Position numbers and translations under genes: made by a program. Shown here in pieces: positions 7,010-11,772 of a DNA stretch of 41,166 nucleotides; positions within the stretch are counted from its first letter, which is position 1, and each line of letters starts with the position of its first letter. The stretch spans positions 280,485 through 321,650 of IMG/VR virus record IMGVR_UViG_3300028886_000031; one strand, given 5' to 3'. The stretch comes from a virus (lineage: Duplodnaviria; Heunggongvirae; Uroviricota; Caudoviricetes). Below the pieces are notes generated by a model. The model ran no database searches. It was given only the letters and a program-made list of their open reading frames with translations, and had not been told where the DNA came from.

Positions 7010-7096
7010 TCGGAGGTGAGCCGAATAGGTAAGGCAACGGGCTGTTAACCCGTCTGGGAAACCTAACTGCGGGATCGTGACCCGCCCTCCGAGCCA
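7010..7096 (+). tRNA. tRNA-Asn (GTT) with long variable arm
   Basis: Acceptor TCGGAGG/CCTCCGA, G73, CCA; anticodon arm ACGGG-CTGTTAA-CCCGT; 15-nt variable region; T-loop ATCGTGA. Confidence 0.85.
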
Positions 7097-7108
7097 TTTT
7101 AATACATT

Positions 7109-7804
7109 ATGAGAAAAATTGTAAATACAAATATATACAGAAGCTATATTTTTCATGGTAGACTTGGAAATATATGCTATCAGTTATGTCATTTGATGAA
7201 TTTTATAGATAAAAATCATCAAAAATTGGAAAAACTTGTTCTAGATTTAAATTATTCGGATGTATCTCCTTATCATACAACATCTCAATATGTTATTAGA
7301 GATAATCTACCATTCTTTAATTATTTTTCTAATAATTTAAGGGATGATTTTGATCTTATTAAAAATAAACTTATTTATTATAAAGCGTATTATGAACCTT
7401 TAGTTGTTAAACCAGAATATGCTTATAAAATATTTTATAACAAAGAATTATATTCTCCAATAATAGAAAAGTATCCAGATATTTCTAATTATATATCTAT
7501 ACATATAAGACGAACAGACTTTTTTAATTATTGCCCAAGATGCATAGCAAAAAAAGATACTGTTAAAAAAATTATAGACAAGTATCCAAAAGTTATGATT
7601 TTTAGCGATGATATGGATTATTGTGCGAAAAATTTTACAGATTCTAATGTTAGTTTAATTCATAATAAAGAAGAATATAATGATATAATTATGATGTCTC
7701 TAACATCTAAGATATATAATCTTAGTTATAGCACGTTTAGTAATTTTGCCATCAAATTAAAAGATGGTATAGAACAATCACAGACTAAACTTAATAAACA
7801 ATAA
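7109..7804 (+). CDS. GT11 family glycosyltransferase (alpha-1,2-fucosyltransferase-like)
   Basis: GRLGN, SIHIRRTDF, IFSDDMDY, DIIMMS and YSTFS match the GT11 motif series. Confidence 0.8.
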   Translation: MRKIVNTNIYRSYIFHGRLGNICYQLCHLMNFIDKNHQKLEKLVLDLNYSDVSPYHTTSQYVIRDNLPFFNYFSNNLRDDFDLIKNKLIYYKAYYEPLVVKPEYAYKIFYNKELYSPIIEKYPDISNYISIHIRRTDFFNYCPRCIAKKDTVKKIIDKYPKVMIFSDDMDYCAKNFTDSNVSLIHNKEEYNDIIMMSLTSKIYNLSYSTFSNFAIKLKDGIEQSQTKLNKQ

Positions 7805-7808
7805 ATAC

Positions 7809-7866
7809 GGGCCGATAGTGATAGCGGTAGCACTTCTGCTTTGTACGCAGAGAGTAGGGTTCGAAT
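7809..7866 (+). pseudogene. 5' fragment of an Ala-like tRNA (anticodon reads TGT), broken at the T-loop
   Basis: GGGCCGA acceptor 5' strand, D-arm, TCTGC-TTTGTAC-GCAGA anticodon arm, GGTTCGAAT; no 3' T-stem, acceptor strand or CCA follows. Confidence 0.75.
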
Positions 7867-7886
7867 TTACCTTCTTGTGTCATTTT

Positions 7887-7964
7887 TGTAGATTGACAAC
7901 ATGATGTCTAACATGGTAGGAAAAACATCTAACCGTCTTTTCCTATGTCAATCTACACTTTTTT
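7887..7964 (+). terminator. Branched hairpin plus T6 upstream of the HNH gene
   Basis: GTAGATTGACA/TGTCAATCTAC outer stem, TAGGAAAA/TTTTCCTA inner stem, then T-run. Confidence 0.6.
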
Positions 7965-7967
7965 ACT

Positions 7968-7981
7968 CGAATAAAATTAAA
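7968..7981 (+). promoter_or_regulatory. Candidate late promoter
   Basis: CGAATAAAATTAAA, identical to 28427-28440; starts 46 nt upstream of the HNH ATG. Confidence 0.55.
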
Positions 7982-8013
7982 TTAGACAATTTTTATTAAA
8001 GGTTAGAATTTTT

Positions 8014-8913
8014 ATGGATAATAATTCAATTCATTATTGTAAGAATTGTGGTGAAAAATTTTATAATGATAAAAGTGATTTTTGCAGTAAACATTGTGCA
8101 TGTGGATATAATCCTATTATAACTAAAATGTGTCCATATTGTAAACAAGAATTTACAATCAAAAAGAAAAAATTTGCTGCACATGTCAAATATTGTACAC
8201 AAAATCCAAAAAGAATAGAAATAGATAAAAATTTAAAGAAAACTGGCGCAGAAACAATTGATAAAAAATATGGATTATTTAAAGAATTTATTGTAAAATG
8301 CCATGTATGTGGAACGAAATTTACTGTAATAGAAAGAGAGAAATTATTTCCACAAAAAGAACGATATTATTGTAGTGACGAATGTGGAAAAAAATATGCC
8401 AATTCTTGCATGAATCATGATACATTCCAAAAAATATCAAATACACTAAGATCTAGATATAATAAAAAGCCAAGAATATGTCCAGTTTGTAAAAAAGAAT
8501 TTACAGGCAATAGAAAATGTTGTTCTGATAAATGTAGAAAGTTTTATATTCATGAATCTTATGATAGAAGTCATCTTATTAAAAGAAGTCAATTAGAATT
8601 ATATCGATCAAAATGTGATTTTCATTTTTCTTTAAGAGATTATCCAGACGAATTTAATTTCGATTTAATTAAACAATATGGATGGTATAAAGCAAAAAAT
8701 CATGGAGATAATTTGAATGGCGTATCTCGTGATCATATGTATAGTATTAAAGAAGGTTTTGTGAATAATGTTGATCCAAAAATTATGTCACATCCAGCAA
8801 ATTGTAAATTATTAAGGCATTCAGATAATGTTCGTAAAAATTCAAAAAGTAGTATCACATTACAACAATTACTAGAAAGAATAGATGCTTGGGATAAAAA
8901 ATATAATAAATGA
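8014..8913 (+). CDS. Free-standing HNH homing endonuclease with multiple CxxC zinc-binding repeats
   Basis: Several CxxC pairs; C-terminal SRDH...HPANC...SDNVRK fits an HNH core; location inside a tRNA cluster. Confidence 0.75.
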   Translation: MDNNSIHYCKNCGEKFYNDKSDFCSKHCACGYNPIITKMCPYCKQEFTIKKKKFAAHVKYCTQNPKRIEIDKNLKKTGAETIDKKYGLFKEFIVKCHVCGTKFTVIEREKLFPQKERYYCSDECGKKYANSCMNHDTFQKISNTLRSRYNKKPRICPVCKKEFTGNRKCCSDKCRKFYIHESYDRSHLIKRSQLELYRSKCDFHFSLRDYPDEFNFDLIKQYGWYKAKNHGDNLNGVSRDHMYSIKEGFVNNVDPKIMSHPANCKLLRHSDNVRKNSKSSITLQQLLERIDAWDKKYNK

Positions 8914-8923
8914 TAAATATTTT

Positions 8924-9014
8924 GGGCCATTAACTCAGTCCGTTAGAGTGCTTCCTTTGCACGGAAGAAGCGTCATTGACGTTCACGTGGGTTAAAATCC
9001 CACATGGTCCACCA
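8924..9014 (+). tRNA. tRNA-Ala (TGC) with 19-nt variable arm
   Basis: GGGCCAT/ATGGTCC acceptor with G3-U70, A73, CCA; CTTCC-TTTGCAC-GGAAG; variable stem AGCGTC/GACGTT; T-loop TTAAAAT. Confidence 0.85.
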
Positions 9015-9016
9015 TA

Positions 9017-9090
9017 GCATCTGTAACTCAATGGCAGAGTGTCAGCCTTCCAAGCTGATTACGAGGGTTCGATTCCCTTCAGATGCTCCA
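9017..9090 (+). tRNA. tRNA-Gly (TCC)
   Basis: Canonical cloverleaf GCATCTG/CAGATGC, U73, CCA; TCAGC-CTTCCAA-GCTGA. Confidence 0.95.
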
Positions 9091-9136
9091 TTATTAAATA
9101 GATTTCCTATAATTTTTTTAGAAAAAAATTAAAGAT

Positions 9137-9211
9137 TGCGGGATAGTGCATCGGTTGCATACTGGGCTCATAACCCGGAGATGGTTGGTTCGACTCCAAC
9201 TCCCGCTACCA
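9137..9211 (+). tRNA. Initiator tRNA-fMet (CAT)
   Basis: 1:72 mismatch (U/U), three consecutive G-C pairs closing the anticodon stem (CTGGG/CCCGG), A73, CCA. Confidence 0.9.
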
Positions 9212-9215
9212 ATTT

Positions 9216-9293
9216 AAACATGGGTGACAGACCATTATATTTCCTTTGAACCTTCTGTGTGCTTGTTTATTAAATGGACCTCCCATGTTTTTT
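9216..9293 (+). other. Large-loop hairpin with T-run between two tRNA genes
   Basis: AAACATGGG/CCCATGTTT outer stem, partial CCATT/AATGG inner stem, T-run to 9293. Confidence 0.5.
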
Positions 9294-9295
9294 AT

Positions 9296-9371
9296 AGCAG
9301 GATAGTGGTAGTGTCTCCATACAAGTTGAAACACATTTGTGATGTTGGTTAAAATCCAACTCCTGCTACCA
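9296..9371 (+). tRNA. Atypical tRNA-like RNA (initiator-tRNA-like body, 8-nt anticodon loop TGAAACAC; possibly Phe-GAA or non-decoding)
   Basis: Perfect acceptor AGCAGGA/TCCTGCT, A73, CCA; D-stem GTGG/CCAT; T-arm GTTGG-TTAAAAT-CCAAC; anticodon stem CAAGT/ATTTG. Confidence 0.7.
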
Positions 9372-9374
9372 ATT

Positions 9375-9409
9375 GCCATAGGATAATTATATCCTATGGC
9401 TTATTTTTT
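9375..9409 (+). terminator. Intrinsic terminator ending the tRNA cluster
   Basis: Perfect 11-bp stem GCCATAGGATA/TATCCTATGGC followed by TTATTTTTT. Confidence 0.85.
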
Positions 9410-9444
9410 CTAAAAAATTAAAATTTAGAACATAATAATGTTAT

Positions 9445-11772
9445 ATGAAACTAAGCAACAGTTTTCGCGGATTAAGAAGACATAAAAATTATGTAGAAAA
9501 TTTAGGGAATAAGAGAGAGAAAGTTTTACAGAAATTAGATAAGAATTATCCATCTAAAATCATTAAAAGTGATATTAAAAAAGTTACAAAAGAGAAAAAA
9601 AGACAAAAAAATACTTTTAAAATCATCAAAAAAACAACAGAAGATAAATCAGAACATAAAAGTATCCCAAGTTTTAAAGAAAAACAAATTCCATATATTA
9701 GTTTTATAATAGCTTTTTATAACAACGCACCATATATAGAAAGATGTATCAATTCCATTCTTAATCAAACAGTTAAAAATATAGAAATCATACTTGTTAA
9801 TGATGGATCTACAGATAATGTAGAACCAATTCTGGAAACATATAGAGAAAAATATTCAAACATTAAAGTTATTAACCAAGAGAATAAAGGTGTTTCTGCT
9901 GCCAGAAATATCGGTATTAAAAATTCTAATGGCTTATACCTAGCATTTATCGATGGGGATGATTACATTACTCCTGATATGTCTGAATATTTATTAGACA
10001 GATGTTTAAAATATAATTTAGATGCTTGTTATTTCGATTTTAAATTCATAGATGTTTCTACAAATAAAATCCTAAAAGCTGCTTATCACTTTAAAAATTT
10101 TTTATCGGAATTTAAATTTGAAAAAGTAATTTCCACATATGACATAAAACTAGATATTTTATGTAGTAGTATGGCTATGGGAATATATAAAAGAAAAATT
10201 TTTATAGACAATAACATCACATTCAATGAAGAAGTTGAATTTGGCGAAGATTTTTTAGTAAAATTTGACTATTTTTATTTATATAAAAGAATAATGTTTG
10301 TAAATAAAGAGTTCTATATTTATTGCAGAAATAGAAATGATAGTGCTACAACTACAATTAACAGGCATATAGATAGAATTATTGTATTTTTAAATAATAT
10401 TATAAAAATGTATTTAAGACATCTAATCAATGATTCTAGAAATAATAGTCAATATATCAATCTTATTTTACGTGAAATAACACATTACGTCAGAATACTT
10501 AAATGTCAAAAAACTGATGAATGGTGTCAAAACAATCTTTATTTAATAGATCCAGATCTAATTCTAAATAATGATATTAATCCGCTATATATAGATAGAT
10601 TAAAGAATATTATAGATCTTAAAAGATTTAATAATCTATATGATAAGATATCTTTTTATAGATCCAAATTAAAAAAGTCATATTATATTATTACTGGTCA
10701 ATTAAATTCTACAGAGAATGAATCTATAGATTCTTGGTTATTTTTTAAATACTTAAGACAAAATAATATAGATTCCATATATGTCTGTTGGAAAAATCAT
10801 AAATCGTATGCCGAATATAAGAAATTATATCCAGAATATGTTATCGGAATGAATGGTAATTGTGTTACAGATGAGGAGTTCTTTAGTTCTAGATTATTTC
10901 CATATATTGTCAGGTCAAAATTTTTAATTCAAGAAAATTCAGCTTTAAATTCTAATATAGAAAAATATATTTATAACTGTAAAGATTTTTGTAGAGTATT
11001 CTTGGGTCATGGAATAACTGTAAGTAATGATATTAATTATTTAAAATTTTTAGATATTTATAATGTATCATCCGATAATGAAAAGAAAATTGTAAAAGAA
11101 GCCGTTACACATACAAAATTGAATAACAGTAACTTTATTGTCGCTGGTTTACCAAGATATGATTACTTAAAAGATGAGTATGATAGTCAAAGAAAATACG
11201 CATTCATAATGTTCACATGGAGATATACATTTACAGATTCACTTAAAATTCAGAGCAGTGATTATTTAAAGAATATACTTAATCTTGTAAACGAAGATAA
11301 TATTAATAAGTTAAAATCTAATGGAATTACTCCTATATTATGTATACATCATCATATATTAAATAAACTTAAACTCAAATTAAACTTAGATAACGTTATT
11401 ATACCAGAATCGACACAAATCTCTAGTTATATTAGAAAATCATTTGTATGTGTTACAGATTACTCAAGTGTTAACTATGATTTTAGATTCTTAAATAAAC
11501 CTGTGATTTTTTGGACTCCAGATTTGAATAGTTCTAAATTATCTAACGTAGATCTTCAAAAACAGTCCATTTGTATAAAAAGATTAAGTATTTTTAACGA
11601 TACTGTTACAGATATAGATTCTGTAATCCATAAAATCATATATTACTCAAAGAATCCGTATTTATCAAAAGATAAGATTATTTTGAATAATTCTTTCTTT
11701 AAATATAGAAAAAATATTTCAGAACATTTATATAATGGATTAGAGAGAATGTATTCTCAATTAAAAAATTAG
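9445..11772 (+). CDS. GT2 glycosyltransferase fused to a CDP-glycerol glycerophosphotransferase (TagF-like) domain
   Basis: GT2: SFIIAFYN, EIILVNDGSTD, GVSAARNIG, FIDGDD. TagF-like: FLGHGI, GLPRYD, FTWR, TDYSSVNYDF..LNKPVIF. Confidence 0.85.
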   Translation: MKLSNSFRGLRRHKNYVENLGNKREKVLQKLDKNYPSKIIKSDIKKVTKEKKRQKNTFKIIKKTTEDKSEHKSIPSFKEKQIPYISFIIAFYNNAPYIERCINSILNQTVKNIEIILVNDGSTDNVEPILETYREKYSNIKVINQENKGVSAARNIGIKNSNGLYLAFIDGDDYITPDMSEYLLDRCLKYNLDACYFDFKFIDVSTNKILKAAYHFKNFLSEFKFEKVISTYDIKLDILCSSMAMGIYKRKIFIDNNITFNEEVEFGEDFLVKFDYFYLYKRIMFVNKEFYIYCRNRNDSATTTINRHIDRIIVFLNNIIKMYLRHLINDSRNNSQYINLILREITHYVRILKCQKTDEWCQNNLYLIDPDLILNNDINPLYIDRLKNIIDLKRFNNLYDKISFYRSKLKKSYYIITGQLNSTENESIDSWLFFKYLRQNNIDSIYVCWKNHKSYAEYKKLYPEYVIGMNGNCVTDEEFFSSRLFPYIVRSKFLIQENSALNSNIEKYIYNCKDFCRVFLGHGITVSNDINYLKFLDIYNVSSDNEKKIVKEAVTHTKLNNSNFIVAGLPRYDYLKDEYDSQRKYAFIMFTWRYTFTDSLKIQSSDYLKNILNLVNEDNINKLKSNGITPILCIHHHILNKLKLKLNLDNVIIPESTQISSYIRKSFVCVTDYSSVNYDFRFLNKPVIFWTPDLNSSKLSNVDLQKQSICIKRLSIFNDTVTDIDSVIHKIIYYSKNPYLSKDKIILNNSFFKYRKNISEHLYNGLERMYSQLKN

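Follow-up and report, generated by a model that had tools for sequence, protein, structure and literature searches.

A long-armed tRNA-Ala(UGC) with a U19-A56 elbow beside a putative homing endonuclease gene in a 322-kb phage genome

Anatomy of the tRNA-Ala gene

We analysed a 41,166-nt stretch of DNA (the window), positions 280,485 to 321,650 of the IMG/VR virus record IMGVR_UViG_3300028886_000031, in which an alanine tRNA gene with a long variable arm follows the gene of a putative homing endonuclease. The record is a 321,650-bp genome, rated complete by CheckV, of which the window forms the end; it has 31% G+C and 15-16 tRNA genes. The sequencing runs placed the genome in the bovine gut, the DNA similarity of a neighbouring gene led to the Lak megaphages and to LR756500, and we take the phage to be a distantly Lak-like jumbo phage of the cattle gut, of roughly 322 kb. 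An alternative genetic code was not needed for this genome, as table 11 already yields about 91% coding. TAG is read as Gln in relatives at loci L057 and L065.

ARAGORN found five tRNAs in the window, including the tRNA-Ala(tgc) at 8924-9014 (plus strand), and Rfam family RF00005 gave this gene 56.9 bits, where the gathering score is 29. The gene is 91 nt long and specifies a 7/5 cloverleaf with an encoded CCA; its minimum-free-energy structure in RNAfold was the cloverleaf with a fifth hairpin (-31.5 kcal/mol, z = -3.05). The acceptor stem has 7 bp (GGGCCAU/AUGGUCC). Direct reading places G3 of the alanine identity pair G3:U70 at 8926 (plus strand) and U70 at 9008, with the discriminator A73 at 9011 and the CCA at 9012-9014. 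The anticodon UGC (8958-8960) stands in the loop UUUGCAC, which is typical of bacterial tRNA-Ala. All alanine identity elements (G3:U70, A73, G2:C71 and the UGC anticodon) are thus present by sequence reading.

Two parts of the molecule depart from this ordinary frame. The variable region is 19 nt long (8968-8986, plus strand) and consists in the RNAfold structure of an A, a 6-bp stem (8969-8974/8978-8983), the loop AUU (8975-8977) and CAC. The stem strands, AGCGUC and GACGUU, form the pairs A-U, G.U, C-G, G-C, U-A and C-G, and ARAGORN draws them as 5 bp. Such a region is a class II arm (at least 10 nt with a stem); the anticodon, UGC, and A73 are not those of the class II tRNAs (Ser, Leu and Tyr, with G73 for Ser). 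The second departure is in the elbow. The T arm GUGGG-UUAAAAU-CCCAC (8987-9003, plus strand), seen by direct reading and by ARAGORN, has A56 at 8994, and 20 other phage tRNAs, of many isotypes, share this 17-mer. Opposite it, the D stem of 4 bp closes the D-loop AGUCCGUUA (8937-8945), within which G18-U19 lies at 8942-8943 (plus strand) by direct reading. Infernal puts the loop in another register, C18/G19, at a low posterior (~0.6); we used the G18-U19 register because it agrees with other phage tRNAs, in which the 7-nt D-loops are unambiguous and the 8-nt loops follow them. The remaining tertiary partners are standard (U8-A14, G15-C48, G18-U55 and U54-A58). The initial annotation, made from the letters of the sequence, had described G3-U70, UGC, the 6-bp variable stem, G18-U19 and TTAAAAT with A56, and ARAGORN, Rfam, the fold and direct reading all bear this anatomy out.

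Compared with a canonical class-I tRNA-Ala(UGC), the gene shares the 7/5 branch, the 4-bp D stem, G2:C71, G3:U70, A73, UUUGCAC, the encoded CCA and the Levitt pair G15-C48, whereas its variable region has 19 nt and a 6-bp hairpin instead of 5 nt and U19-A56 replaces the near-universal G19-C56. An ordinary class-I body has undergone two structure-preserving changes, the insertion of a hairpin of about 14 nt in the variable loop and the change of the elbow pair 19-56 from G-C to U-A. The hairpin sequence occurs once in the genome, which ruled out a repeated mini-element.

Allo-tRNAs (PMC5389517; PMC7609411) also combine a long variable arm with G3:U70 and come from metagenomic, including phage-linked, DNA. 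However, they are defined by an 8/4 or 9/3 acceptor/T arrangement (PMC5389517), whereas the window tRNA is 7/5 and has a class-I D arm and a cognate alanine anticodon. Class II tRNAs (Leu, Ser, Tyr and Sec) likewise have a base-paired variable arm of more than 10 nt; the window tRNA differs from them in its alanine anticodon and acceptor identity, its 4-bp D stem, A73 and, unlike tRNA-Ser, the unpaired bases on the 3' side of the arm. These likenesses raise the question of a dual or switched identity, in which the long arm would recruit seryl-tRNA synthetase (SerRS), or A73 and the class-II shape would recruit leucyl-tRNA synthetase (LeuRS), so that Ser or Leu entered at alanine codons. In E. 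coli, allo-tRNAs with a long arm and G3:U70 do lead to the incorporation of both Ala and Ser (PMC7609411; PMC5389517), and A73 is the main leucine determinant in that species (PMC9976931). Yet SerRS uses G73 (PMC7609411), where the discriminator here is A73; the D arm is of the class-I type; and three unpaired bases stand 3' of the arm, as against one in the phage tRNA-Ser genes examined. E. coli LeuRS needs G18-U55, G19-C56 and U54-A58 (PMC9976931), of which 19-56 is altered in this tRNA, and the gene replaces an ordinary tRNA-Ala of the same anticodon, as described next. We consider a change of amino acid identity quite improbable.

The resident tRNA-Ala and the cassette

Upstream of the long-arm tRNA lie, in this order, a tRNA stump and an open reading frame (ORF) of 299 codons at 8014-8913, and the tRNA starts 10 nt past the stop codon of this ORF. 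The stump (7809-7870, plus strand) is the 5' part of a resident class-I tRNA-Ala, recognised by direct reading and by a weak Rfam match of 16.5 bits at 7814-7874. It retains the acceptor 5' strand GGGCCGA, the D arm, the anticodon arm with TTTGTAC, the T stem 5' strand and the T-loop GGGTTCGAAT, at which it breaks off; the 3' strands are missing. Its anticodon is TGT in the window and TGC in sequencing runs X5 and X6. The spacer of the cassette (7871-8013, plus strand) contains, by direct reading, a long inverted repeat (GTAGATTGACA...TGTCAATCTAC) with a T run behind it, and was unflagged by a simple terminator scan.

Contigs of four other sequencing runs were aligned to positions 7700-9500 at a threshold of 80%. 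In run X5 the stump is joined to the ORF as it is in the window, and the cassette is present in the window, X5 and X6. One contig of X6, which comes from another rumen sample, follows 7700-7856, continues with 29 other nt and rejoins at 9016, lacking a 1159-nt cassette. This cassette-free form is a perfect 75-nt class-I tRNA-Ala(UGC), with GGGCCGA/UCGGUCC, G3:U70, A73 and CCA, directly before a tRNA-Gly(UCC). The latter gene (9017-9090, plus strand; ARAGORN, Rfam and the X6 contig) is the right-hand anchor common to the cassette-bearing and cassette-free forms. Presence and absence at one locus, by which a homing cassette is recognised, is thus seen here on a single low-depth X6 contig. Judging from this contig, related phages appear to have an ordinary tRNA-Ala and no cassette. 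A mobile cassette of 1.16 kb (7857-9015), comprising the ORF and the long-arm tRNA at its 3' end, has probably replaced the last ~29 nt of the resident tRNA-Ala. By both ARAGORN and Rfam the genome has one tRNA-Ala, and GCU and GCA make up 86% of the alanine codons of the phage.

Conservation of the long-arm tRNA

In a blastn search of 50,697 phage records the only matches were partial ones to unrelated tRNAs, with no close homolog among cultured phages. All that pattern searches of IMG/VR for a tRNA-Ala with A56 or with the same D arm returned were chance matches lying outside tRNAs; such scans possibly do not see the record from which the window comes. A neighbouring gene that encodes a GT2-TagF fusion, tried for synteny, had no relatives in IMG/VR.

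A structural pattern scan of JGI metagenomes yielded one contig, L056, with an 89-nt tRNA-Ala(UGC). Nucleotides 8-50 and 62-80 are identical to those of the window tRNA, a range that includes the D arm (with G-U), the anticodon arm and the T arm (with A56). In the acceptor stem, both partners have changed in each of the pairs 4-69, 5-68, 6-67 and 7-66, with two cases of C-G to G-C, one of A-U to U-A and one of U-A to A-U, whilst G1-C72, G2-C71, G3:U70, A73 and CCA are retained. The variable arm of L056 keeps the four basal pairs and has a 5-nt loop and a different, shorter tip, 17 nt in all. These compensatory stem changes in a homolog argue that the long-arm tRNA is not a chance look-alike. 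The context of the tRNA in L056 differs from that in the window, since it adjoins a PP-loop ATPase gene. Genes of this kind (PF01171, the Pfam family that includes TilS) adjoin arrays with a long-arm or an A19-U56 tRNA-Ala at L056:214-909(-) and at L057:3785-4339.

A second comparison came from a 259-nt contig of run X6. Its copy of the tRNA differs by one base in 97 nt, and that base is the first in the loop of the arm (8975). In the same run, nuclease-gene fragments diverge by 6.6-7.5% from the window. At that drift about 6.5 changes would be expected in 91 nt (Poisson P(≤1) ~0.01), with the reservation that the fragments perhaps come from more than one genome. L056 and X6 together bear what looks like the signature of a working tRNA constrained to remain an alanine acceptor. 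The initial annotation had called the tRNA functional, and the four double compensatory acceptor changes with G3:U70 retained suit that description of a gene under constraint.

These comparisons bear on whether the gene is a decaying or neutral oddity, an unused passenger of the cassette whose arm and elbow are products of drift. tRNAs of phage arrays are often aberrant, several of the nuclease-adjacent tRNA-Ala genes described below are 69-84 nt long with odd T-loops, and the window also holds a tRNA-like gene with an 8-nt anticodon loop. Against decay, every helix of the long-arm tRNA is intact and each tertiary partner is standard or compensated; the acceptor stem has changed pairwise around a retained G3:U70; the tRNA has far fewer changes in X6 than the ~7% of the nuclease-gene fragments; and the gene is the sole tRNA-Ala of the genome. 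Decay is accordingly an improbable account of it.

The 299-aa protein and its family

The ORF at 8014-8913 (plus strand) encodes a 299-aa protein with N-terminal Cys4 zinc-finger repeats and a C-terminal HNH-like (His-Me finger) domain, a putative homing endonuclease. It has at least 382 relatives, nearly all unnamed and many of them on huge-phage contigs of 200-400 kb. The C-terminal domain of the family has the invariant pattern SRDH...HPANC...N..K (S-R-D-H, H-P-x-N-C and N-x-x-K). AlphaFold models were confident (pLDDT 87-89), and structure searches with the C-terminal domain returned almost only HNH/His-Me nucleases at weak scores (Foldseek E ≥0.37, Z ≤4.3; best Z 3.9-4.3), among them Cas9 HNH domains, the Gme and GVE2 HNH enzymes, BrxU, SspE, T5 SciA and colicin DNases. 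Foldseek with the whole protein gave weak zinc-finger arrays only, and nothing useful came from a profile search against PDB sequences.

A tRNA-Ala(UGC) gene immediately adjoins a member of this family in 8 of 11 contexts, where the relatives are 40-50% identical. It lies 40-140 nt upstream of the family gene in L001, L057, L058, L059 and L067, and downstream in the other three, overlapping the stop codon in L062 and L066 and standing 10 nt away in the window. The adjacent tRNA-Ala genes are diverse, with lengths of 69-91 nt and expanded variable regions in 4-5 of the 8; that of L057 has an A19-U56 elbow and that of L058 a UGCAAUU T-loop. A non-standard T box or elbow was found in 7 of the 12 tRNAs that flank family genes, compared with 13 of the 75 others at the same loci (Fisher p = 0.005, a post hoc test uncorrected for shared descent).

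In L062 (3356-3429) and L066 (3225-3300) the 5' end of the tRNA-Ala overlaps the last codons of the zinc-finger/HNH-like gene. Processing of the tRNA would therefore remove the stop codon, as for segB and tRNA-Arg of T4, which overlap in this way.

Covariation of the elbow in phage tRNAs

An elbow census was made of the 321 unique phage tRNAs collected in this analysis. Where position 56 is C, D-loop positions 18-19 are GG in 273 of 292 tRNAs; where it is U, they are G-A (7/7). The initial annotation had proposed a search for U19/A56 covariation in other phage tRNAs, and many have it: with A56, positions 18-19 are G-U, with no GG, in 18-19 of 20. An exact search of IMG/VR was made with the 17-nt T arm, a pattern that fixes A56 and leaves the D-loop free. 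Of its 41 hits, 20 fell within tRNAs, which were of many isotypes (Met, Lys, Arg, Cys, Pro, Ser and amber suppressors). Five more A56 tRNAs, obtained independently of the 17-mer, have G-U too. Among tRNAs with 7-nt D-loops, in which the register is unambiguous, GG goes with C56 in 43 of 51, GA with U56 in 5 of 5 and GU with A56 in 1 of 1, and 8-nt D-loops follow the same 19-56 pattern.

All 19 phage tRNAs with G55 in the T-loop (as UGC in 17) have A-G instead of G-G in the D-loop; they were found in loci L007, L009, L011, L023, L040, L058, L064 and L067. A18 with G55 is thus an apparent second kind of elbow covariation in these sequences.

In cellular genomes the 17-mer was found in only 12 tRNAs in 596 Gb, 7 of which are tRNA-Cys in cyanobacterial tRNA arrays. 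The tRNA-Cys genes of arrays L076, L078, L101, L117, L131 and L132 have the same T arm with A56 and a G-U D-loop. Two actinobacterial tRNA-Ser(CGA) genes (L069 and L073) have A56 and yet GG, and so are uncompensated. Cyanobacterial tRNA arrays are mobile and lie beside an HNH gene (PMC8421152). They resemble the window in their horizontal spread, in their HNH neighbour and, for tRNA-Cys, in the GUGGGUUAAAAUCCCAC T arm with a G-U D-loop; they differ in lying on bacterial chromosomes or plasmids, in isotype and in having no long arm that we saw. The covariation and the distribution of the 17-mer between IMG/VR and cellular genomes lead us to regard U19-A56 as a real, recurrent and compensated variant that appears concentrated in mobile tRNA genes. 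A literature search found no paper naming a U19-A56 pair.

The variant elbow is found in 2 of the 16 tRNA-like genes of this phage; all its other tRNAs have a GG D-loop and C56. The second gene, at 9296-9371, scores 34.8 bits as an Rfam tRNA, was missed by ARAGORN and is related to the tRNA-Met at 9137-9211. Its anticodon loop has 8 nt, and its GU D-loop and TTAAAAT T-loop are as in the tRNA-Ala. A strong hairpin like an intrinsic terminator (9375-9400, plus strand) follows it and closes the nuclease-tRNA cluster.

A selection at the level of the RNA could also produce such elbows, if the arm and the U-A pair let the tRNA evade a host tRNA nuclease, or a factor that reads the elbow or the variable loop, with translation kept; evasion of this kind was suggested in the initial annotation. 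Cleavage of tRNA is an established form of host defence, which phage tRNAs counter; Septu, for instance, cleaves a variable loop, which makes escape plausible in principle (PMC13096335). Compensated elbows are also far commoner in viral contigs than in cellular genomes, as the counts for the 17-mer illustrate. However, our literature search found no nuclease that reads the 19-56 pair of tRNA-Ala, and we know of none. Selection by a general host factor should have reached all the tRNA genes of the phage, where two vary, and the stacking platform is the same for U-A as for G-C. RNA-level escape is therefore unlikely to be the driver.

Long variable arms on other tRNAs, and the neighbouring genes

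Variable regions of 9-26 nt were present in 22 of 265 unique phage tRNAs with class-I anticodons (~8%), distributed as Ala 5, Thr 5, Asn 4, Ile 2, His 2, Met 2, Trp 1 and Cys 1. One of these, the tRNA-Asn(GUU) at 7010-7096 of the window, has a 15-nt variable arm and the T-loop AUCGUGA, in which positions 54 and 58 are swapped to A54/U58; long-armed tRNA-Asn(GUU) genes occur also in L012, L027 and L062. The tRNA-Trp in the count, from Prevotella phage Lak-C1 (L002:1326-1417), is 92 nt long and has the anticodon CCA and a variable arm of 8 bp. A tRNA-Ser with an ACU anticodon (A34) is present in two unrelated huge phages (G000:C1:244519-244608 and L062:4201-4284). Our literature search found no paper that joins variable arms with phage-encoded tRNAs or megaphages, and a 2020 review of non-canonical tRNAs does not mention phages.

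The tRNA cluster is flanked by glycosyltransferase genes, a GT11 at 7109-7804 and the GT2-TagF fusion at 9445-11772. These neighbours are the grounds for the suggestion, made in the initial annotation, that the tRNA donates alanine outside the ribosome to a glycan or teichoic-acid-like pathway, in the manner of the non-proteinogenic tRNA-Gly of staphylococci. That suggestion found no support. Both neighbours are ordinary enzymes of their kind; the 321,650-bp genome has no match to the FemAB family (PF02388), which provides the partner in staphylococci, and no aminoacyl-tRNA transferase was found among the 8 flanking ORFs scanned. Moreover, the gene stands in a five-gene tRNA cluster in the place of a standard tRNA-Ala, and its homolog in L056 lies beside a PP-loop ATPase gene, not glycan genes. 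A role as alanine donor is very hard to credit.

Discussion

We propose that the gene at 8924-9014 specifies a functional translational tRNA-Ala which travels on a mobile nuclease cassette and replaces the gene that the cassette broke; we put the probability of this reading at about two in three. A plain role in translation is favoured because the tRNA stands in a tRNA cluster in place of the broken ordinary tRNA-Ala(UGC), and alanine as its amino acid because the alanine determinants are present and were retained through compensatory change. The phage genome (321,650 bp) encodes no alanyl-tRNA synthetase (AlaRS), so that the host enzyme would have to act. G3:U70 works in many tRNA frames, including long-armed allo-tRNAs (PMC7609411). 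We infer that the host AlaRS would charge the long-arm tRNA through G3:U70, and that the charged tRNA would read GCA, GCU and GCG on the ribosome in the stead of the destroyed gene. The remodelled parts would then be tolerated and compensated changes with no new function.

The closest known system is that of T4 SegB, which recognises the DNA of the T-psi-C box (GGTTCRANTCC), cleaves tRNA genes at their 3' ends and takes neighbouring tRNA genes along; the segB mRNA is cut at its stop codon during processing of the next tRNA (PMC2330249). SegB homologs are widely linked to tRNAs (PMC13096335). The window shares with T4 SegB and T5 F-Tfl (PMC2330249; PMC13096335) a nuclease gene in a phage tRNA cluster, a presence/absence polymorphism and flanking tRNA genes that travel along. 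The difference is that SegB is a GIY-YIG enzyme without isotype preference, whereas the window protein is a predicted zinc-finger and HNH-like protein linked to tRNA-Ala(UGC).

By analogy with SegB, the nuclease at 8014-8913 may target tRNA-Ala genes, and the stump ends right at its T-loop. The tRNA of the cassette differs where such enzymes read, with GGTTAAAATCC instead of GGTTCGAATCC, and its hairpin splits the junction between variable region and T arm. Owing to such divergence in the DNA, the tRNA gene of the cassette would be poorly targeted by the neighbouring nuclease, and we judge this the most plausible driver of the change; U19 would restore in the RNA the pair that A56 would break. 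In a wider and more speculative form, which we think doubtful, the elbow pairs (19-56, 18-55 and 54-58) and the variable loops of phage and mobile tRNAs would have been rewritten through conflict at the DNA level with homing endonucleases that read the T-psi-C box: C56A or a site-splitting hairpin would confer resistance, G19U would restore the fold, and the long-armed tRNA-Ala would be the immune allele on its own nuclease cassette.

Several observations weigh against the proposal of a replacement tRNA on a nuclease cassette. The cassette-free allele is one contig of depth 4.2 with a right-hand side of 29 nt; an assembly artefact is argued against because the X6 junction creates a perfect cloverleaf. 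Pfam yielded no HNH match for the 299-aa protein, only zinc-finger noise, and its assignment as an HNH-like nuclease, predicted from structure models and held with moderate confidence, is a weak one. The 2-kb contig L056 has the same tRNA and no recognisable nuclease. Long arms on Thr, Asn, Ile, His, Met, Trp and Cys tRNAs point to a possible more general cause. At loci fetched regardless of nucleases, recognisable homing-endonuclease domains were found in 2 of 25 ORFs flanking variant tRNAs, compared with ~6 of 39 flanking canonical ones; because there is no general enrichment beside variant tRNAs, we advance immunity to the nuclease as a hypothesis. Contigs from an RNA library cover 8778-9143 without differences, but at a depth equal to that of the low-depth flanks, so that DNA carry-over is possible and we did not use them as evidence.

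G19-C56 is almost invariant in cytoplasmic tRNAs, and tRNA-Ala is held to be strictly class I. The conserved natural tRNA-Ala described here departs from both rules with its alanine identity elements all kept, and class rules are therefore unreliable for the annotation of tRNAs in huge phages. Phage tRNAs appear to hold a family of compensated elbow variants (U19-A56, A19-U56 and A18 with G55), which may serve as natural, pre-tested designs for engineered orthogonal tRNAs. The finding also makes it testable whether selfish nucleases, beside translation, shape the sequence of tRNA genes, a question to which the pair of cassette-broken and cassette-free alleles would be well suited.

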